Source: Anolis carolinensis | Lineage: Eukaryota | Length of the DNA stretch: 64,000 nt | Reading direction: 5' to 3' | Assembly: GCF_035594765.1 (NCBI RefSeq) | Contig: NW_026943823.1 | Coordinates: 20,893,842-20,957,841 of the forward strand | Shown here: positions 44,101-59,100 of the stretch, piece by piece | How positions within the stretch are numbered: position 1 is the stretch's first letter | Layout of the letters: each line of letters opens with the position of its first letter | Program-made: the position numbers and the translations under genes | Notes under the pieces: model-generated | Told to the model about the DNA's origin: nothing | Seen by the model: only the letters and a program-made list of their open reading frames with translations | Databases searched by the model: none

Positions 44101-47100
44101 ATTAGAAATTATTTGGTGTGTGTGTTTTAGTTTGGAAGACAGAAGAGGGGGTGGACTGGAAAATAAAGCCTGTTTCTTCTGCGTGGTCACTCTGGAATCC
44201 ACACCTGTGGTATCTCCACCATCCACAGGTGTGAATTCCAGAGGTGACCACTGGAAGAAACAGGGTTACAGGTAAGCAACCATACCTTCTTTTTTAATCA
44301 TGGCAACATTAAGGAATAGTGCCATTGTGAAAAAACATGGTTCTCTACAAAAATGCATACGTGTTTGGTAGTAGCAACTAATATTACATTGCTTCCCTTT
44401 CCCTTCATTTTTGCAGAGGACGGACTCCACGGCATTGTGAGTTGCACTGCTTGTGGCCAGCAGGTGAACCATTTCCAAAAGGATTCAATTTACAGGCATC
44501 CTACATTAAATGTCCTTATTTGCAAGGTATGTACTAGGCTAGTGCATAATTTTGGATTAGATCGGAACTCGTCTTTGATTAGTTAAATTTGGACATACAT
44601 ACGTGAGTCCCGAAGCATGCAGGAAAGGTGAGGGGGTGGAATTTAGAATTTGAATCACCTACCCATTTTTTTCAGAAATGTTCTATAACATTTGGATAAT
44701 GTTAAATGTGTTCTACCACTGTAGCAAGTTTTATCAGGATAGCTCAAAAAGCCCCCAAAGTTTCCCTACTTGCCAGTGATGTTTTCCCATTGCACATTCG
44801 TGACCGCCATTAACAAAGTACTTATGAAGATTCGTAGGTTTCATTAGATATCTGAAACATTTACCCTAAAAATTAGGAAAGAACTTCAAAAACTAATCGC
44901 CAGCGCCCCCTACTTTTGAACACAGTTTAGAACCATTTTTTATGGATCGCACATGCCTAATGTGTACATGTCTCATGGGTAGTGTTTAGATCTCCACATT
45001 ATATTTATAAATTACATTCTCTGCTAGATTTTATGCTTTCAGTAATATTGTTCAAAGTGTGTGTGCAATGGATCCAAACAATATGATTTAAAGTTTCTGA
45101 GAAAATAATCTTTTCTTTGCAGTCTTGCTTCAAATACTATATGAGTGATGATATCAGCAGGGACGCTGATGGAATGGACGAACAGTGTAGGTAAGTGTAT
45201 AAAATAACTTATATAGTATTGCATTTACTAGGGTTACGAGTAGCTAGTAAAGTCCCTTTTCTCTTAACTAGTATTTAAGGAGTGCATGCCGATGGCATGG
45301 CAAGCATAATATCTATGGAACCCCCTGGATTCTCAGTAATGAACAACAATTGTTGCATAATATTTGAATTCTTCCCACATTGAGCAAACACTAAAATATT
45401 TAGTTTCACTCTGCAGTGTGCCTTCTAGTAACAGGCAACCTCCCTCCCAAGAAACCTTGTTTGTGTGGAGGACATAACATAAGAAGAGGCCCACAGTTGA
45501 GCAAATTTCTAGTGTCTGTGTAGAAAGTGAGAGAGATTGGTGTGTGTGTGCTTCTTTATGGAAAGCTGGGGTTCCCTTGGATTCCTTGCTCCTTCCATTG
45601 TGAGAAGAGTCTCTCGTAAATCCAACCTAGATTGGTGGGTCCCCCTAATAGCCGGCCTATGTAACCATATAAATAATGCCTTCAATATACCTATAGGTTG
45701 GAAAATGGCAATAATCATCCCTATTTACAAAAAAGGGTGTAAAAAAGACAATTGCTTTGTCCTACGTTGTTTAATTAATAAACACCTAAAAAGAAAGAGC
45801 TTCTTACATGTCACTTTTATCGATTTAAATGCAGCCTTTGATAGCATCAATAGAGAGATTCTCTGGCAAAAATTAGCGGAACACGGAATTGATCATAGGC
45901 TATTGCTCTTGATCAAAAGTCTATATTAATGATCTGCCGGACTACCTTAGAGCTACTGAAGTACATTTGCTAAAAATTGGTAACAGACATGTAAATACAC
46001 TTTTATATGCGGATGATATGGTTCTGATGTCTAACACACAAATTGGAGGTTACTGAGTAAACAGTGTTTATGCCCACAAAAACAAGTTGACAGTACACAA
46101 AACTAAATAAAAAAATAATGGTGTTTGGAAATCGCCTAGAAAGGCAAAAATGGTTCCAGATGCTGAGGGTATAGAACAGGTCAGCTCATTTACACACTTA
46201 GGATTTGTCTTTTCAGAGTCAGGTTCATGGCCTGTGCACTTTCACTCATGCACAATTAAAACTAGGGCTCGCTCAAACACACTGACAAGACAACTATGCC
46301 ATAGATATCCTGGGTCTTTAATCCTGATAATAAATGTTGAGAAAGCAAAGATTGTCCCTATAATACTATACAATGTGTAGTTTATTCATGTTCCAGCTTA
46401 TTGACTTTCCAGAGGAAAGCCAATTGACAGGGACCTTAATTGTAAAGGCAACAGTAGCACTGTCCTGTGAGAAAATCCTTAGCAATGAAATGGTGGCCTC
46501 ATTTGCTCAGACATTAGCCCTCTTGTGAAACGTTCTCCATTGTTTTGAAACCTGTCTCGACTTCCATTCCAGATGGTGCGCTGAAGGTGGGAACCTCATT
46601 TGCTGCGACTTCTGCCATAACGCCTTCTGCAAAAAATGTATCCTACGCAACCTGGGCCGGAGGGAGCTGTCGGCCATCATGGACGAAAACACGCAGTGGC
46701 ACTGCTACATTTGCCATCCAGAGCCCTTGCTGGACTTGGTCACGGCTTGCGACAGCGTGTTTGAGAACTTAGCACAATTGTTGCAGCAGAATAAAAAGAA
46801 AATCAGAGCGGACAGCGACAAAAGTAAAATGTATGACCACACACTGAAATATTCCTCAAAGAAAAATAGCTCAAGCTGTAATGGCGAAGAAAAGAAAGAC
46901 CACCCATATGCTGGTTCTATAAACTATTCATACAAAGCATTAATGGTGCCAAAAGACCTGCTCAAAAAGACAAAAAAACTGGTAGAAACAACCACTAACA
47001 TGAATGCTAGCTTTGTAAATTTTCTTAAAAAGGCAGCTGAAAACTCTGAAATAAACTCTACAGTGCACTTGCGTCAGCTAAAGGCTTTTAAATCAGTGTT

Positions 47101-50100
47101 GTGTGACCTCAAAAAGGCCCACACAGCTTTGGAGGAAGGTCTCAATCTGGAGATTGAAGCTCTAGGTGTTAAAATGGGGGGAAAAGATACCAAAGAGAAG
47201 GGAAGTGAGACTAAATTGGCTGGCAGCGAAGCAAGGAAGACAGAAGAAAAAGAATCCAAGGAGCAGAAAACCACAACCGAGGCCGGTGAGCAGAATGTAT
47301 CCGCAACAGAACAAACGGCAAGCCGAAAGTCAGTTTCCAGAGAGAAAAAAAGTGGGAAAAGTGATGAGCTTCAATACGAACCCAATAGCACAGAGGCCTC
47401 AGATATGGATATTGTGTCTGTCCCCTCCTCTGTTCCTGAAGACATTTTTGAGTCTTGCATGGAAGCGCAGAAAGCAGGGGAGCCGGGAGCAGCAAGCGCA
47501 AATGCAAAACCTAAGGACAGCAAGGGAGGGGCAAAGCAGCAGGTGCCGTCGCCAAAAGTCAAAAAGGAATTGGTGGTGAAACTGACTCCCGTTTCCCTCA
47601 GCAATTCTCCTGTGAAGTCTGACGATCCAGATGGAAAGTTAGAGGAGGAAGAGGAGGAAGAAGGTGGAACAGAAAATCTTGAAACTGAACTGCCAGTTGA
47701 AAACGACGTTGTCTCGGTGATAGAAGATCATGACCTCAGGAGGTCTCCGCGAGTCAAAACCACCCCTCTGAGACGCCCGACCGATGTCAAAGCCTCAACA
47801 TCTAACTCTGAAGAGGAAGGCAACGGTGCGTACAGTGAAAGACAAAGAAGAATGCCTGCAAAGTCCAAGAGAAAAAATGACCAGCAGAGTTCTCCTGATA
47901 GCACTCTTAGTAACCCTAATGCGCTTAGTGAGACTGACAAACCAGACGCAGCGGACCTTAGTTCTGATTCTGATGAGGTGCCTGCAGTTCTCCAAGAAGT
48001 GGCCATGATGAGCCACAGCTCTTCAGATGCCGACAGCCCCTGTGAAACATCAGAGGAGCCCTTGAGTGCTGCAAAGAGGGAGCCTACCAAGGAGGACAAT
48101 GGGAAGCGGAAAAGGAAAAGTTCCAGTTCTGGGTCAGACTTTGATGCCAAAAAGGGCAAATCAAGTCAAGAGTTTGGTGAGGTGAAAAAGAAACGGCAGA
48201 CCCGTTCAGAGTCTTCTAATTGCAATTCTGGGGCAGAACGAGAGTCTAAAATGGAGTCTCCTGGAAAAGCGCCAAAAAAGAGCCCCAAGAGTGAAGACGG
48301 TGGCTCTTCCGAAGAAAAACCGACTAAAAGGGGGAAAAAATCAGAGCAGCCAGAGGAGGAGGAATTATGCAATGAAGCTGATGACGTGGAACATCCTTCT
48401 CCAGGTGCAGAGAAGCTAGATAGTTCTTCGGAAGAGGAAACTGCAGAAGCCAAGGGAACGAGGGATGAGAAAGAGAGACCTTCCAAAGGCAAGCAGAGAG
48501 ATAAGGAAGAGTGTGCTGTCTCCAGCAAGAGAAACAGAAAGGCAAAAGAAGAAGGACAGGAGCTTTCTTCTGATGAGAGTCAAGAGCAGAATGGCGAGTC
48601 CTCAGATGGTGCGGGGAAAAAGACTAAGAAAAGCACAAAAGGAAAGAGCGTGGGCCAAAGGAAAGGCGAGTCCTCTTCCGAAGCTGACAAGCCTGAAAAA
48701 GAGGCATCCAGTCCTTCTGGAAGTAACACCAAGAAGGAGAGCCCTCCTGAGGGGAAGGTGAAAAGGACCCTGAGGGAGCGAGTTCCCAAGAAGGTCCCAG
48801 ACCACGCATCTGAGGCCGTGAAGTCTCCCCAGAACGACACTTCGGAGGACAACCTCACGAAGAAAAGAGGATTCTCCAAAGAAAAGAAAAAAGCCGGCTC
48901 CAAAAGGAGGAACTCTAAAAAGGCAAGAGGCGACTTGCTGTCCTCCTCTGACGAAGAGTCCGAGGAGAAAAAGACCAAAAAGAGAGGGGCGGCCGCTAAG
49001 CAAAGCAGGAAAGGTGGACGGGACGAGAAGCAGAGGACTGGAGGGAAGAAGACAAAGACGGAGGCCGCTAGCACCACCACTACATCGTCATCGGACAACG
49101 AAGCCGAAGAGGACGCGAATTCCAGCGACACAGAGAACAGTGACAAGCAGAAAATCAAGCCCTTGACGGAAAGCCTTTTGCCGCCTACCAAGCTGGGATT
49201 CTGTCAATCTTCAGGTGTGCAACATATTTCACATTTGAGAGTTGTTATGAATTTAAAACATTTTCCAGCTTTTTCAAATTGTATTTCCAGTGATGTTTGT
49301 GTGAAAGGCAGGGTGTAATTTCAAGAATAATAGTTTCATTTAGATTGGTGCTGGCTTACTGGTTCAACGTTCATGTAATGGACTTTTAAACAGGACCTTG
49401 ACTATAAGGAAGCTGGCATCCTGTTTGACACAAGGGCTAGCTGTGTGGCCCTTAACAGCCTTCAGACAGGACACATGGTAGGAAACCTGGCCCAAGAGCA
49501 CGAGTTTGTCTAAATCAGTGGTTCTCAATTCGTGGGTCCCCAGGTGTTCTGGCCTACAACTCACAGAAATCCCAACCAGTTTACCAGCGGTTAGGATTTC
49601 TGGGAGTTGAAGGCCAAAATATCTGGGGACCCACAGGTTGAGAACCACTGGTCTAAATAAAGACAGCCTTGAATCTTTGATGTAATTTTGCAAGGAAAAA
49701 GGGCTGATTCCGGTTGATTTTGGTATTCTTTCAGATATTTTCTGAACAGCAGTGTGAAATGACCATTTTGTTCTTTTAACTACATGTAAGCTGTGTTAGT
49801 TCTGTTCTTGAATCGGTTTGTTCCATGTGTCTCAAGAGTCATTTATCCACATCTGACAAAATATATCCTCTCTGGGCATTTCTTAGATTCTCCAGTACAA
49901 CTCTGTGGTTTGCTTTGGACTGAGAAATCTGGAGAACTGAGCGTTGCCTAAAAAAGTCTCCTCTTTAAGCATTTCCTAGGTCCTCCCAACAATTCTATGA
50001 CATACTGTTACTGGAATTTGTTTGTTGTGTTTGTACATAGTTTCATCCAATTAGAGAACATAAAAATGTTCCCTGTATAGAGGGAAAGATTGATGGTGAG

Positions 50101-53100
50101 GTTTCGCTGACTTTGGGCTATTTCAAGGCTACACTTTATATGCACATCTGCTTTTTAGCCATCTTGTGGTTGCATACGAAGGGACGGAAATCGTTGTTGG
50201 GAATTGTGGCCCTTCAGTTTATTGACTGATTGACTATAAGTCCCTTATTCCTTCATATTTAGTTATTGCTGGGTAGAGCTGATAGGATTCTAGGCCAAAA
50301 GCATCCAGAAGAGGACAGTCGCTCAGTTCTGCTATAGAACATCAGTTCAGTCTTATGCACGCACTTAGGACTGTCCCGCTCACTTTATAGTTCAACTACA
50401 GCAAATAATATTATTTACTGGCTGCCTCTCCTCGTGGCTTGAAATTTAAACACAATCCCATAAAATACATAGTACAGAAATTAAAACACGACATGACACT
50501 AAATGGAATGTAGTGTTTGATTTTAAATTTGCATCTTTTGGTTTGCCCTGTGTATATAAATCACAGCAATTGTCTAAAAACAAAGTGTAATAGTTATTAG
50601 GCAAATAGTATTATCTAGTTTTATTTATTCTTTTTATAGGTTTACACATAATAATAATAATAATGATAATAATAATAATAGTATTTCTTATCCACTGCTC
50701 CTTGGAGTGGGGCACAACATATTTAAAAACACTTCAGTGTAAAACATGATATTAATAAAATGCATGGAACAAAGATTAAAATACAGTAAACACGGGACAT
50801 GAGTTTAAAATTCATAGTTAAAAACGGACTGGGTTTTCAGTTTACACAGCAGTTCTGAAAAAGATGGTTTTGGTTATTTTAAGGAGCAGATTCTTAGCAG
50901 TGAGAATGGTTTTTGTTGTGATTCTACATGCAATGAGTGTTTCTTTCGTGCCAGATTCATACCCATTTTTCCTTTCTTTCTTTCCAAAGGTGATGAAGGT
51001 GAGACCAAGGCAGCCACCATGCCGATGGAGGCAGAGGAAGATGACGACGACGATGATGATCCCGAGAATAGGTATGATTCCGACCGTAAGGACCTTAGCT
51101 GGGTTATGACACCCCCTAGGCGCAGGTGCACACCAGCGCAACGGAGCCACAAGCAGGTTGTAAAAACCAGAAGTCCCTGCCTGGTCCAGACTCGCTCCCA
51201 GGCTTCCCGCAAGTTTGAACGAGAGGCCAGAAAGCAAGCCCCTAAATCTGGGCATGAAAAGAAATTCAGAAAATAGATTGAAGTGTTAACACTTACACCT
51301 TGTGTAGGGTGTGTTATCAATGCACTGCAGCTCTGTCCATTCTGAGGTTTCCATGTGAAATGTAGATTTTATGTAACTTGTACATTCAGTCTCATTTTGG
51401 AGCAGAGGGGAGGAACCGGTTTCTTACTTAATGGCTGCCCAGAGAAGTAAGATGGCCTTAAATCAGTATTGTGACAAAAATTTTGTTTTGCATCACAACG
51501 ATGTTTCCAGTTGATGTATGAACTGGTTCTAATGAGAAAGCAGGACCAGAATGTCCCAAATATTCACTCCATAACTTTGAAAGTGAGTATCTGGTGACAT
51601 TTGGTAACATGACCTGAGTTGATTTCCTTTGAGTGAAGCTTTATTAATGGGTTTTGGAGTTAAATCCACATGTTGATTTAAACATGTGGGGCAGTGTACT
51701 TTTTTTCATTAAAATCTTGTTAAAGCGGTAGTTCTCAACCTGTGGGTCCCCAGGTGTTTTGGGCTACAACTCCCAGAAATCCCAGCCAGTTTACCTTGCA
51801 GTTAGGATTTCTGGGAGTTGAAGGCCAAAACATCCGGGGTTGAGAACCACTGTGTTATTAAAGTATTGTATCATTGTTGTTTCATTGTAGTGCAATTTAG
51901 GGTCACAGGCCAATTCTATCATTATGGAACAGTAAAGCAAATTAAAAACAAAACAAGTAAAATAAGATTTTTTTTAAAATGGATGGCTGGACTTAGAAGT
52001 AAGCCTTGTGGGACCCAATGGGGCCTATCATTGTGAAAGTGTCTTTTGGATGTGCTCTTATTGCATGGATCAGATCCATCTTGTCAAGGCAAATGTTGGT
52101 GCCTGATGTCGGTTACCAGGCAGTTTCTTTTGTAAGAATTATTTGTTTTTGGGGAAAATGACTTCTGCAAACTCAGTACGCTGATTTGGCAATTGGGTGT
52201 CTTTTGACAATGACGAATATACAATTATCTAAGGGAGAGGGGGATAAGAATCACATGTTTGACTGGTTTTTATTTGCTCAATTAGAGAAAACAAAGCATT
52301 TTCTTCCTTTATTTTCCTTTCCTTTTTGGTTTGTACCTAAAGTGAATATTAATGCTTGACTTGGGTACAGACAAGAATGCTGCTAATGTAGCTGTTACTT
52401 ATGCTTTGCAAATATTTAATACTGAACGATAATAATTGCTTGGTGATTAAGAATATAGAATAATAAGCAAATATTTTGGGAAAGTTTTAAGACTTTGTTT
52501 TAAAGAAATCAATACTGAGTTCCTTATTTAATTGTTAAAATCATTTATAGTAGATAGGAAAAATGGTTGGGTGGGTTTTTCTTGCTTTATTTTATTACGT
52601 AGCAGGCGAATCCTGAAATAATATTTTAATCATAAATAATAGTTTTCTGTAGTTCCTGGAATTGCTTTAAAGGGGAGGGAATGGCATGCCCATGAATGCT
52701 GTATAATCCAGGAAATGATCTATCTACCTCTCTGAACAATATGCAAAAATGACTTGCGCTAACGCTGTTTAATGTATCCAGAGGCTTCGGTTTGGTCCTT
52801 GTTTCCAAATAGGGAGAGCTCCAAAGAGCTGACTGAGCTTCAAAGGATGCACTTAAGGCTTGTTGTGTGTTTAATTGTGGCTCGCTTTTCCTTTTGGGCA
52901 AAGCACTTGACTCCTTCCAGGCCAAAGAGGGATGCTGGAGATGCAGAGTCTTAGTGACCTTACAACTTGTACAGTTGTATCTACCGCTTTCTTTTTTCTC
53001 TCTCTCTTTCTCTTTGAATAAACCATTTAAACATTGCCTCTTATTAAAATGTTAAAATAATCTCTTTTATTTTCCTCTTTTTTGCCAAGTGCAATATTTT

Positions 53101-56100
53101 AGTTTTAATATAACAGACAGTGCTGTATTTTGTTGTGGTGTGTATTTGTTTCCTCTTGATTTGTCTGCATTTTCCAAATAGTGCTGTTTTAATATGTTTG
53201 GAGTTTAATTTTTTTTTTGCTATTTTGTTCATTAAGAGATTCATAGTGTATTCATGCACAATGCCTTTTAAGTATTTGATGGATGCAATAAATTTTTGTA
53301 AAACACATTTCTCGTGCAAGCATTTAATTTGAAGAAATATCAAACACAATTGTTACTAAAATTTACTTCATTTGTGTTCATACTGAAAATTTGCTCACAA
53401 AGTGCGCAGTTTATCCTTTCTGCTGTTTCCTAATGTTAAGACAAAATACGTTGATTGTGGTACATTAGTTAAAGAGTAGTAGTATCTCCATAACACATTG
53501 CCACAGTTTTCTTTACGCATCTTCTCCTTTTGGGCAAATGCAGATTTTAGTCAAAGGTTTAAATTGTAATCTCCCTTGATTCTAGTTGGAAAACGTAATC
53601 TGTCCCAGAAGACTTGTGCATGCATTCAGGGTTTTCTATGCATTTTCCAATTGTGACCTCGAACATGATTCATGCACAGATTGACGCTCTTCAACACTTT
53701 CCTCCTCTCAATATATATTTATATAAAAGCATTGTGAGAGTTTGCTGGAGGAGTGGGTTGTGTTGGGCACAACTGAGGACAAAGAGGCTGTTGCAGAAGG
53801 CCGCAAATGCGACACCTTCTTGGATATTTCAAAGCAAGAGAATGCAGGATATTTCAAGGAGGGTGCTTGTGGGGCTCTTTTCTATACTGTAAATGCGATC
53901 CACAAATGCAGGTTGTACTGTTGTCAATAAAAATAGGGGGAAAGTGAGATAACTGCCTTTTGACTCTTATCATTTTGATCATATAGGACATTCTGTCAAA
54001 AAGAGTCCATACGCTTTATTGTCCGTGCCTTTTACAAAGTGCTCCACGAGGGTCATTTCTTATTGGAAACACCATTGATGATCTGGTACAGGGACTGGTA
54101 GTTCTATTCCCCCATCAGCCAGTTCCCTGTTTCTGCCCATTGACTACAATTGTTTTATTACCTCTCCTGGAAACACAAGGGCTGGTACTGGTCCAGGGAT
54201 CACCACTTTGGTTAGTGCTGATTTAAAACACCTGGTTTAGACTTAAATACAGATAACTCTCTGTTGAAATCCATGGGATTTAAATCATTAATGCTTAACT
54301 TCTTGACTCCATCTCAAGGTCCAGGGTCACGAGCCTGCTTGCCTTTCTGGTCACTGCTCCAAGTGTCTAGCATTTCCTCAGTTGGAAGTTCCCACAGAGA
54401 TTTCACATAGGTTTTCTTTCAGAAGCAAAACCTATTAGTGCCATTTATGACTTAGGTGGAGTCAGTTCTGTGGGAGGAAGTTCTTAAACCCTGTTTTGAA
54501 GTCTGAAAACCATTTTAAACTGCCTGGTTTCTTGGTCTATTCAGTGATCCGGTTGTGGGTTCCAAAACTGCAAACCACACTGAGTTAAAAGGCTAGGAAA
54601 AACTAGTCTTGCCATTATTAGCTTTATTTGTGTTTCTGTTTTACTTTGCCTCCTTTGACCTCTTCCTCAGATTCAATGCTAGTCTTCCAATAAGTAGACT
54701 AAGGCTACAGGTAAAGAAAAGCAGGAGCTTATAGATAAAATATGGACAAGAACATGTGTATTTATCAGGAGGCATTTACAATTGTTGTTTATGGTTCCGT
54801 TCATCATAATCCTTTTGTGTTGTCTGTACAATCGTCTCTGCAACTTACAGAACCACCAACCAAAGCAAACCCCAGCAGTTCTGCATGATGACCCAGGAAG
54901 TCATCAGAAATAGTAGTTGTGCATTTTGGCTGTTCTCAGGATCAGAATTGGTCATTTTGAGTTATGATTTCTGGAGCCAAAACAGACTCAGTGACTCAAA
55001 AAAGCATCCCATTTTGAAGAGGGGAGAGAGAGCTTGCTTTCCGCTTTTTGACTTCCCAGACTTGAAAAACATGACACCTGTCAGTAGTCTATTCTCAGGC
55101 CCTCATGACTTGCACTGCCATGATTTCAGAATACAAAGCAGCTCCAAAGCTTCCCATTGTGCCAGGGGGTGGTCCCATAGTGGCACTCGCTGCCTGGCTT
55201 TATGTCTTTCAAAATTCACAGAAAATTTGTACTCGATGGCTTGCAGATTGGCTCATCTGGTGTTGACCTGCAACTGGACCAAATTCTTGAGCAGACACAC
55301 AGCAGAGTGTCTTCCCCAAGCATCGACTGCCTGGGAAGAAGGAGGTCCATTCAACATGAGCGAATGACATTTCCGTCAGGTTTTGGTTTGGTTTCAGGCC
55401 AGGAGAACTTCCTTCATGGAGTACGCTCAACTAGAGAGCTGATGCATAGTAATATAGATATCTTCAAGACTGATGTTCTAAAACATTGCCGGTGACAGGG
55501 AAAGAAGAGTGAACCGGAGAGACTGTAATTAATTCAGTTTGGTACTGCTTGAACTGCATTGGCTATGAAACCACTTCCAAAGTGTGCAAACAACAGCCCT
55601 AAGGATTCCATTGCAGTGAAAGTGGTGTCACACTGCATCCATTCTACTATGTAGTTAGGGCCTAGTTAATCCATGTTATGGAACTATATCAGCAACAGGT
55701 GTGCTTTAGGGCAGACAACCCCATCGAACCAGATCTCCTCCTCCTCTTTGGACTGCACTACCCATTTCTCAATTGCAGCAGGGTTTTATTGGCAGTATTT
55801 ATAAGAATGGCCTCATTTCTCCACAAGCAACAGGTGGCTTTCTGCCACTGTGATCATTCAATCTCCCTTTTGTCTTGCACAGGCTTTAAGCACTCGGTCT
55901 TGCGTTACCTTTTTAGTACAGATATATACAAATTGTATTTGTCTGTTTACTGGTGAATCAATGGAATACGCCTTTTTTGTTTCACTCTAAAGAATTGCCA
56001 AGAAAATGCTTTTAGAAGAGATCAAAGCCAATCTTTCCTCAGACGATGAGGCCTCTTCCGACGAAGACTCGGACGGCGGGAAGGAGAAGAAGAATAAAGG

Positions 56101-59100
56101 AAGGAAATCCACAGCCACAGAGGAACACGGTGAGCACAAGGCACAGGCTTCATTCTCTGTAAATCTGTGATAAACTAAGAGTTTGCCTTAAAAGCAGATC
56201 TTTAGGCATTTTCTAGGTCCTCCAGCATGACCCTGTGTTGTGCTTCCACCAGAAGTTGGGCAGAGAATTATACTGGGGGGCCTAGTGATGCCACAATGAT
56301 GGTGATACAGAGAAAAATAACTTACATGATAAAGCTCTAATGCTGTGCCCTTTTTTTCTTTCTGCGACAGAAGAGAATGATGAGGACGATGATGAGCTCG
56401 ACTCAGATTCGGATGTTGAAGAAGCCAAGAAGCCGAGGTACAGGCACCGCTTGCTGAGGCACAAGCTGACTATGAGCGACGGAGACTCCGAGGAAGAGCC
56501 AAAGGGGAAGTCTAAAGAGACCAAAGACTCGAAGCGCAAAACTAGGAGGAAAGGTACGGAATCTATGCATGTGTTTCATAACGAGCACCAATGGGGCTAT
56601 TAAGACAGCCATGTTGCATCCTATGAGATGACCAATCTGGCTTGTTCTCGTTGCTAGATGGAATGTCAGCACTTGTGCAAACATCACTGATTTAATTTCA
56701 ACCAGCAATTTGATTTAGGCCATAGCCTTCATACCTTGTTTTAATTGATATATTGTATTACTGTTTTATCTTTTTATAGTGTGATTTGTATTATGTTGCC
56801 TATATTTTGTCCTATGTTGTTTGGGCCTGCCCCATGTAAGCCACCCAGAGTCCCCGCGGGGAGATGGTGGCGGGGTATAAATAAAGTTTTATTAATATTA
56901 TTATTAACCAGGTCACCGCAGAACAAAAGCATTGTCTTCTCAGTTGTCTGCTTGGCAGAATGAATTTAGATGTGCTTTGAGCATGCACAGAGAGATCAGA
57001 GTCAGTGTCTTGAATTAAGCCCTTCAAGTTTGAACTGAGACACAGAGAGATTCACTGCCCCATTGAACTGAGATCCTTGCATGCACCTCATTCTGTCCAT
57101 ATGTGTGTGCGTGTTTTAATGTGTGTTTGTGTGGGCTGTGAACATAGATAAGACTGAATGCGAATGAGCTCAGATCGCAATTGTTCCTTTGTTTGATCCT
57201 GGGCAAAGGAGACACTACAAGAGTCTGCTGGGCGTGAGTGCATGCTGCTTTTATCGTATTCGGCTCAAACTCACATAGTTAATACTGTCTCAGATGTTGT
57301 TTCTGAGCAATGGGGAAAGCTTTGCCCCATGAGTGGTTTTTTTCCCATTTTTCCCAAATGCATCTCCCAATTTGAGTCATCTAGTTTCACAGCTCCCTCC
57401 TTTGCTCCTTCTTACCAGAATTTTTTACAGTTACATATATTGAGTATATATAGACAGGATAGCTTGGCAGACAATGGATAGACAATGATGCTGGGGAAAA
57501 TGGAAGGAAAAAGGAAGAAGGGCTGACCAAGGGCAAGATGGATGGATGTTATCCTCTAAATGACTGGTTTGACCTTGAAAGAGCTGGGGGTGGCAACGGC
57601 TGATATCATTCTCCTGAGAATTGTTGATATCTCCTCTATAAATAATGACATTGAAGCAGTAGAATTTTTCAAGTGAAAATAAAAGGTTATGGATGTGAGA
57701 CAGTATTTTCTTCTGTCCAGGAGAGTGTGGAAAAAGTCTATGCAGACATGTTTAGAGTGCAATTCCTTGCTTTCTTTGTGTGTTTTGCCTACAGCTTGTC
57801 CTTGTTTTAAGAAATAATGTCAGATATTTCTCAGTGTTTAGGCTTACAAATAAGATGCTACTTTTTTAAAACATACATCCTCTGCCTAATTGCTTGAAAA
57901 TATTACCTCTGGACTGTAGTGAAAAAATAAACCCTTTGAAACAGCTTTAGGTCGCCTTCCCTCTGCAGCCTTTTGCTGCTGTTTGTCTCCAGCATCTTTC
58001 ATCACAAGCTCATCTGAATTCTCCAGTTTTGGGTTTCAATACTGAAATTCATTTTTTTTCTCATTTACACATGCCAGCAGATGGCACCATTTCCCTTTCC
58101 TTGTCTTCTGTATTTGCTCAGAAAAGTATAGAGGCTGGGCCACACAGTGTGAGTTATCCTTACTGATAACTAGAACCTTTTATAGTCACTCTTGACTGTA
58201 CCTTATTCTCTTTTCTTCCTATGAAATTGTTAATAAATACTAGACATTTATCTAGTCATTTCTGTTTTGTTTCCTCTTCAAGTGAGCAGCGAGGACTCTG
58301 ATAATTCAGAAGAGAGCGAATCTGGGGTCAGCGAAGAAGTCAGTGAATCGGAGGACGACCAGCGCCCACGGACCAGGTACCAGAAATGACGGGAAGGGGA
58401 GGCCGGAAAGCCCCTCCATTGCCGCAATTAGGCTGCATTTTTCGGGTGTGGACCAAAAACGGCTGTTTGGCTACTTGCCCGTTTTTGGAAGGCGAGCAAA
58501 AATGGATCCGGGGGTCTCCCAGAATTTGGCAAGCAAAACAGATTGAGCTTCAGTCAAAAAGCACACATCTTCAAATCATACACAATTCAAGTACAGTTAA
58601 TAGTGAAATGGGCATTATCTAAATGCGTCTGTTGTCAGCAAAGTGAAGCAACCACTGTGCTGTAAACATCCCAAAATATTTGTTTTCCGATGGGTCCATC
58701 ACTCTGAACAATGACAGAGATTCCACTGTATCTGCCATGGAATCCTGGGGTTGGGAGTTTAGGGGGAGCATTTAGAATACGTTTCTAATAACTTTAGGGG
58801 TTTACATTGTTTGTTTTTAATACTGTAAATGTTTAATTCTGTTTTAATGTATGTTTTTAGGTTTTAAATTACAGTAGAGTCTCGCTTATCCAACGTAAAC
58901 GGGCCAGCAGAACGTTGGATAAGCGAATATGTTGGATAATAAGGAGAGATTAAGGAAAAGCCTATTAAACATCAAATTAGGTTATGATTTTACAAATTAA
59001 GCACCAAAACATCATGTTATACAACAAATTTGACAGAAAAAGTAGTTCAATATACAGTAATGTATATTGTAGTAATTACTGTATATGTATATGTATTAAT

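Follow-up and report, generated by a model that had tools for sequence, protein, structure and literature searches.

Human and mouse ATRX, a major disease gene, also yields a little-studied short isoform, ATRXt (Garrick 2004, as cited in PMC1440874; Levesque and Picketts 2026, PMC13074095). Intron 10 of the gene in Anolis carolinensis raises the question of whether a reptile makes the same product, and we addressed it in the 64,000-nucleotide stretch of DNA that carries this intron (the window). Very likely, the sequence following exon 10 corresponds to exon 10a of ATRXt as its reptile orthologue, and unspliced transcripts, probably ending near position 53307, would encode an ATRXt-like protein. 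The element itself is not new. ATRXt exon 10a in reptiles is already known at the sequence level from an alignment across mammals, birds, reptiles and amphibians published in 2026, as given in the Fig. 1B legend of PMC13074095. The present analysis adds support from transcripts, and proposes a 3′ end, for a reptile.

The ATRX frame beyond the exon 10 donor

The ATRX gene lies on the plus strand of the window. The large exon, number 9 when 35 exons are counted, spans 46570–49214 as an open reading frame with an approximate start, and its splice joint at 49212–50988 was seen in contigs. A Cys-rich stretch that opens this frame is probably the end of the ADD domain, whereas a Pfam search with exon 9 alone gave no match; an HP1-box-like LVVKL near 47570 aligns with residue 585 of a lynx homologue (P0094). 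Exon 10 occupies 50990–51071 and exon 11 occupies 55993–56129, with GT..AG joints at exon 10 and at the start of exon 11 in contigs of all four runs, and exons read by eye as helicase exons follow downstream of 61 kb. The end of exon 10 corresponds to the residue 1270 junction of the lynx protein, which comprises 1331 residues with a 61-residue tail, the same figures as those published for human ATRXt (PMC13074095).

Past the donor at 51071, the ATRX frame stays open for 67 codons (exon 10a, 51072–51276, plus strand) to a TAG at 51274–51276, and the Lys/Arg-rich peptide is exactly the one originally reported. Exon 10a is single copy in the genome and has a GC content of 53%, compared with 36–41% in the adjoining intron DNA. 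Taken alone, neither the open length nor the polyadenylation signals mean much: local stop frequencies give 67 open codons at 1.4–5% per donor (P = 0.014–0.052), 569 of 13,200 start positions between 33 and 46 kb are open for at least 67 codons, and about 1.5 AATAAA hexamers are expected in the 2 kb in which two were seen. These figures speak for a rival explanation: a fortuitous open frame in intron DNA of the usual kind, with the RNA signal coming from unspliced pre-mRNA. We regard this explanation as exceedingly improbable, as amino-acid identity to the tails that frogs, birds and mammals carry at this junction is 48–67%.

Global identities, taken on the tail alone against homologous tails at the same exon 10 junction, ranged from 36/67 to 44/66 in birds (54–67%), were 31/65 and 34/65 in frogs (48–52%), and ranged from 33/61 to 36/60 in four mammalian tails (54–60%). 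Alignment scores for all nine tails tested were 133–201, against maxima of 35–48 in 300 shuffles each, and in six of six comparisons conservation was higher in the tail than in exon 9 beyond the ADD (48–67% versus 42–53%). A protein search for homologues returned 101 matches (89 bird, two frog, eight mammal, one trout and one other record). The bird and mammal matches are automatic gene models and do not prove a protein, and such a search recovers only lineages that keep the frame; named squamates, turtles and crocodilians were absent from the matches. Tail length was 61–70 residues in 94 of 100 tails shorter than 100 residues, a count that leaves out the longer tails of P0090 and P0102. Five matches, all tetrapod-like, came from a library clustered at 50%. 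Homologues with the tail have the ADD domain and no SNF2 family, while Pfam held no family for the tail itself.

This conservation at the same junction identifies the Anolis stretch as an exon 10a orthologue and bears out its equivalence to the intron read-through of mammalian ATRXt; the presence of the tail in frogs likewise upholds an origin before the mammal–sauropsid split. The basic character of the tail is conserved (20–25 Lys plus Arg in Anolis, bird, frog and mammal tails, four in all). The TP/SP sites, to which the original prediction also drew attention, number three in Anolis and zero in the tails compared from bird, frog and mammal; we rejected them as a conserved feature and consider them lineage-specific, and a role for them finds no support. 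The Anolis tail additionally differs from those tails in having more substitutions in its first 20 residues.

Transcripts in intron 10 and a candidate 3′ end

The expression data were assembled contigs, which show neither strand nor expression level nor a poly(A) tail, and the RNA status of the runs was guessed from contig size and from splice joints, the latter in X6, X9, X10 and X12. Contigs join exons 9-10-11-12-13 at GT..AG in four of four runs from four studies, and all four runs also hold a 720-nt piece, 51042–51757, that passes from exon 10 into the intron; 30 of its letters are exonic, one below the 31-letter bridging rule. The exon 10 donor is thus where the transcripts divide. Contigs span both introns 9 and 10, yet continuous contigs internal to intron 10 are confined to its first 2.2 kb, which argues against unspliced pre-mRNA as their source. 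Contig depth was 8–17 over the tail piece and 52–88 over exons 11–13, a ratio resembling the 5–20% reported for human ATRXt, although contig depth reflects expression poorly and we base nothing on it. No joint in the four runs matched a second donor within exon 10a of the kind seen in the bird gene model P0090.

A stretch of about 2.0 kb, 51277–53307, likely forms the 3′ UTR of the short mRNA and is covered by contigs of runs X6, X9, X10 and X12, and by those of X5 from 51860; it is assigned to the plus strand, the contigs themselves giving none. The contigs end at 53307, 53307, 53300, 53285 and 53204. X6 and X9, from two studies, share the end point at 53307, whereas the genome-sized run X15 continues. 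AATAAA at 53017, ATTAAA at 53043 and AATAAA at 53287 all lie where they had been placed, and contig support exists for the last only: the shared stop follows it by 15 nt at a CA dinucleotide (53287–53307, plus strand), which is a weak hint that 53307 is the 3′ end of the short transcript. The end contigs of X6 and X9 carry 6–7 unmatched letters with no loose end listed, a search for poly(A) letters among the loose ends of contigs yielded none, and the genomic sequence 3′ of 53307 is not A-rich. The upstream pair (53017–53048, plus strand) finds no support as the principal 3′ end, since contigs of all five runs guessed to be RNA run past it, while minor use is possible. The anticipated coverage from 51071 into the intron was found in contigs up to 53.2–53.3 kb, with a candidate end near 53310 and none near 53040.

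The description of this stretch as U-rich and almost transposon-free proved partly apt. The T content is only slightly raised (36% versus 32–34% in neighbouring intron DNA), and a single MITE-like element, a short high-copy inverted repeat without assigned strand at approximately 51726–51852, is present, and intron 9 holds a second, related copy (~49516–49650); 51860–53310 matches nothing else in the genome. Summed contig depth is very high in the bins of this element.

Since the contigs are without strand information, the signal could in principle come from an independent or antisense transcript over the 5′ part of intron 10. We give this almost no credence. In four of four runs the piece begins within exon 10, 30 nt from the donor, which would fit an assembly fork there; the signal terminates past an AATAAA of the plus strand, and that strand also carries the conserved frame. 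A rather less remote, but still quite unlikely, alternative accepts the transcript and attributes the conservation of the sequence to an RNA or DNA element that tunes splicing or ATRX dosage, a transcriptional off-ramp in which the peptide matters little. Consistent with this, the first tail residues overlap the splice-donor consensus, and exon 10a is not essential for the nucleolar and heterochromatin localisation of human ATRXt (PMC13074095). Against it, frame and length are kept, indels are whole codons and substitutions are conservative. Moreover, nucleotide conservation falls right after the coding part of exon 10a, and exon 10a alone sends GFP to the nucleolus (PMC13074095).

In the favoured reading, that of a coding exon 10a, splicing is likely in competition with cleavage at a point 2.2 kb into intron 10, and the unspliced transcript would encode ATRX exons 1–10 plus the conserved 67-residue basic tail, lacking the SNF2 ATPase. 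An mRNA with its stop codon in the terminal exon escapes nonsense-mediated decay, and the short mRNA should do so for this reason. If it behaves like human ATRXt (PMC13074095), the protein would retain H3K9me3/HP1 targeting, would be helped into the nucleolus by its basic tail and would serve as a minor repressor or scaffold devoid of the ATPase. The ATRXt protein and its localisation to heterochromatin and the nucleolus, but not PML bodies, are described in human and mouse only (PMC13074095).

The Anolis arrangement shares with human and mouse ATRXt the same intron (10 in the 35-exon and 11 in the 36-exon numbering), the junction after PENR, a homologous basic tail followed by a stop and an intronic poly(A) signal, and a predicted retention of ADD with loss of SNF2, on the strength of homologues with the tail and of the exons read as helicase exons downstream of 61 kb. 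It differs in tail length (67 residues versus the 61 that follow residue 1270 in the 1331-residue human protein) and in the MITE-like insert in the UTR, and it is known here from sequence and contigs.

The DAXX-binding region and the tail

The isoform switch does fall inside the DAXX-binding peptide, as predicted: the ATRX peptides in PDB 5GRQ, 5Y18 and 5Y6O end in a stretch identical to what exon 11 contributes. The helix residues that bind DAXX (L1276, L1277 and I1280 in human) come from exon 11, and this hydrophobic core is missing from the short form, which, compared with full-length ATRX 1259–1285 in 5GRQ, keeps the polyD loop and the PEN residues that contact DAXX. L1276A abolishes ATRX–DAXX binding in ITC (PMC5636754). 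The further proposal that the short form loses DAXX is supported in so far as the solved binding residues sit in the omitted exon, but human ATRXt co-precipitates DAXX (PMC13074095), and the structures and this co-precipitation are in conflict.

The start of the tail reads D-hydrophobic-x-x-hydrophobic-hydrophobic, the spacing of L31/Y34/F35 in Rassf1C (PMC5636754); such a motif is generic for amphipathic helices, and it is a candidate by its spacing. The pattern occurs at tail positions 7–12 in 142 of 151 tail records, which are related rather than independent, and is missing in five of five fish-like records. The first helix of the tail may replace the lost DAXX helix. A complex prediction for the Anolis DAXX bundle piece with a polyD-plus-tail peptide scored 0.00 in two runs, using one DAXX exon with a truncated first helix and neither an alignment nor folded controls; it weighs neither way on this proposal.

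Origin of exon 10a

Homologous tails were found in the trout gene model P0102 and in five fish-like records (P0122–P0126), one of which is a spliced ADD-plus-tail protein, and profile–profile comparison of the fish tails gave a probability of 95% (E 3e-8). Homologous fish tails were not found in the literature searched. Exon 10a probably goes back to the bony-vertebrate ancestor. We are doubtful of the larger proposal that combines this origin with a splice choice swapping the exon 11 DAXX helix for a Rassf1C-spaced exon 10a helix behind a shared polyD loop. Such a swap, if true, would account for the co-precipitation of DAXX with an ATRXt that has no L1276, and would cast ATRXt as a competitor for DAXX that lacks the ATPase. 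Should the fish tails be confirmed, zebrafish or medaka could be used for an isoform-specific knockout; mouse exon 18 knockouts leave ATRXt intact (PMC1440874). In Drosophila (PMC12607251), an ADD product without the ATPase similarly exists beside an ATPase product (dAdd1/dXNP), but from two genes, whereas ATRXt arises from one gene through intron retention and intronic polyadenylation.

Read-through at the exon 10 donor

The plus-strand ATRX gene in the window has exon 9 ending at 49214, exon 10 at 50990–51071 and exon 11 starting at 55993, and the GT..AG joints of these exons are present in contigs of all four sequencing runs. The exon 10 donor is a fork: one path is spliced, and the other is unspliced and carries a conserved in-frame tail (exon 10a). 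Translation past the donor gives 67 open codons and a TAG at 51274–51276, with a peptide identical to that originally predicted; the three poly(A)-like hexamers (53017, 53043 and 53287) and the single inverted-repeat element also lie where they had been placed. Frame length, hexamers and inverted repeat are each weak evidence when taken singly: a run of 67 open codons has a probability of 0.014–0.052 per donor, and AATAAA occurs twice in the 2 kb against ~1.5 expected. The read-through has an exon-like composition (GC 53% versus 36–41%), and in a genome search neither the tail nor the last (3′) 1.45 kb of the proposed untranslated region matched anything but itself.

A 720-nt contig piece spanning 51042–51757 was recovered in all four runs, which come from four studies, with more pieces beyond the repeat element. 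These runs are presumed to be RNA, having transcriptome-sized contig sets and spliced joints; their contigs carry no strand, level or poly(A) tail. The piece includes 30 letters of exon 10, one fewer than the bridging rule requires, and we infer that its identical 51042 start in every run is the expected result of an assembly fork at the donor. The contig sets differ from the window within this piece by three substitutions and one 4-nt insertion, too few to test, all downstream of the stop codon and none inside the tail.

Contigs end at 53307 (X6 and X9), 53300 (X12), 53204 (X10) and 53285 (X5, a fifth study), while X15, a run with a genome-sized contig set and possibly the origin of this DNA, runs on through 54500. 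The CA at 53307 follows the AATAAA at 53287 by 15 nt, and the DNA beyond it is not A-rich; the same stop in two studies is a weak hint of a 3′ end. Of the predicted coverage from exon 10 into the intron, ending near 53040 or 53310, the entry into the intron stands, and the end points of these assembled, presumed RNA contigs spread over 53204–53307. The short transcript is very likely expressed. Splicing of the intron would compete with intronic cleavage near 53307, and since the stop codon would lie in the terminal exon, the mRNA should be stable.

Conservation and age of the tail

The read-through tail is real and well conserved, and the sequence affinities agree with the original label of reptile. 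Exon 10 plus the tail as query gave 52 matches among 293 candidates (51 birds and one frog), and of 7,987 candidates scored with a tail profile 101 matched: 89 from birds, two from frogs, eight from mammals, one from trout and one further record. These homologues are automatic gene models, and named squamates, turtles and crocodilians were absent from the matches of the protein searches, which see only frame-keeping lineages. With exon 10 removed, tail identity was 54–67% to three birds, 48–52% to two frogs and 54–60% to four mammals, with alignment scores far above shuffles in 9/9 cases (300 shuffles each), and in all six comparisons its conservation exceeded that of the part of exon 9 following ADD. 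Its length is 61–70 aa in 94 of the 100 tails shorter than 100 aa, a count that excludes the longer P0090 (Eurypyga helias) and P0102 (trout). Its basic character is conserved among the homologues; the predicted TP/SP sites are not.

In PMC1440874, citing Garrick 2004, ATRXt arises when this intron, which has a poly(A) signal inside it, is retained. The lynx model P0094 (1331 aa, with a 61-aa tail diverging after residue 1270) has the same figures as those given for human ATRXt in PMC13074095, and this match in length, junction and tail fixes the orthology of the intron. The proposal that the isoform predates the mammal–sauropsid split is borne out, but it is already in print: the Fig. 1B legend of PMC13074095 puts exon 10a of mammals, birds, reptiles and amphibians in one alignment, and the reptile ATRXt tail is already known. 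What we add is modest: a candidate for the 3′ end in a reptile, homologues of fish-like type and an idea about DAXX that can be tested.

The trout model P0102 reads through at the same junction, with ~25 homologous residues followed by divergence, and scored only E 0.13 in the first tail-profile search. A profile including it recovered five more records, P0122–P0126 (E 4e-10 to 0.2), whose exon 10 is closest to trout and whose tails of 58, 62, 62, 78 and 62 aa share a common end. P0126 (876 aa; best named match trout) has an ADD domain and continuous exon 9–exon 10 sequence, then the tail and a stop. In tests with the three donor-overlapping residues removed, the tetrapod profile scored 4/6 fish-like tails higher than any of 1,000 shuffles; for the remaining two, 4 and 35 shuffles reached as high a score. 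With the reverse profile, no shuffle came up to five other tetrapod-type tails, and 16 of 1,000 shuffles scored as high as the reptile tail of the window. Profile–profile comparison gave a probability of 95% (E 3e-8). These comparisons point to a tail older than the ray-finned fish/tetrapod split, with a species name, trout, on one of the six records. The word 'zebrafish' is absent from the available text of PMC13074095, and literature listings, which exclude subscription journals and bioRxiv supplements, yielded no paper addressing ATRXt in fish or an interaction of exon 10a with DAXX.

The short product and DAXX

As predicted, the junction falls inside the DAXX-binding motif: the peptide encoded by exon 11 exactly matches the final 15 residues of the ATRX peptide in PDB 5GRQ. 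The hydrophobic core of the ATRX–DAXX contact consists of L1276, L1277 and I1280; no binding is left in L1276A, and affinity rises ~14-fold with the polyD loop that exon 10 encodes (PMC5636754). This core is omitted with exon 11, and the solved contact is therefore lost in the short form. The broader claim that DAXX binding is lost holds for that contact, but DAXX co-precipitates with transfected human ATRXt in U2OS cells (PMC13074095). Because full-length ATRX likewise co-precipitates with ATRXt, the association may be indirect; U2OS cells have low ATRX expression, according to a review. The association may instead be direct. Tail positions 7–12 read acidic-hydrophobic-x-x-hydrophobic-hydrophobic in 142/151 tail records, with the same spacing as L31/Y34/F35 of Rassf1C. 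A tail helix could replace the exon 11 DAXX helix, an idea offered only as a hypothesis, since these records are not independent of one another, such a pattern is generic and 5/5 fish-like records (P0122–P0126) lack it. An exon of the genome's DAXX gene, coding for most of the helical bundle, lies at L002:1504–1740, with one genome match.

The short product would retain the N-terminal chromatin-reading half and lose the ATPase. Human ATRXt, an HP1-alpha binder found at H3K9me3 chromatin and in nucleoli, acts as a repressor of rRNA transcription (PMC13074095); by analogy, the tail's main role may be that of a signal directing the product to nucleoli or RNA.

Other ATRX forms and neighbouring genes

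P0090 splices from within exon 10a to exon 11, predicting a full-length ATRX whose DAXX peptide is interrupted by 47 tail residues. A GT of the same phase lies near 51212 in the window; no such joint occurs in contigs of the four runs, and the form is possibly a prediction artefact. Four lynx models (P0136, P0141, P0144 and P0146) end 73 residues past PENR, the last exon 10 residues at the fork, apparently by read-through of the intron after exon 11; this would make a possible second truncated form with the DAXX helix retained. In monkey, rat and rhinoceros models (P0138, P0139, P0140, P0142 and P0143), a common novel start is spliced to exon 11, which suggests that mammalian intron 10 harbours an alternative first exon that is conserved, and that an ATPase-only form exists; contig pieces supporting such an exon in the window's intron 10 were absent from the four runs.

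A tRNA gene at 15172–15285 (Rfam, 50.8 bits), which ARAGORN at default settings did not find, likely contains an intron because it is longer than the Rfam model. Exons of an OST3/OST6-family gene (18600–22208; Pfam match at 21843) lie upstream of ATRX and share its strand, and we take this gene to be probably MAGT1, in synteny with mammals.
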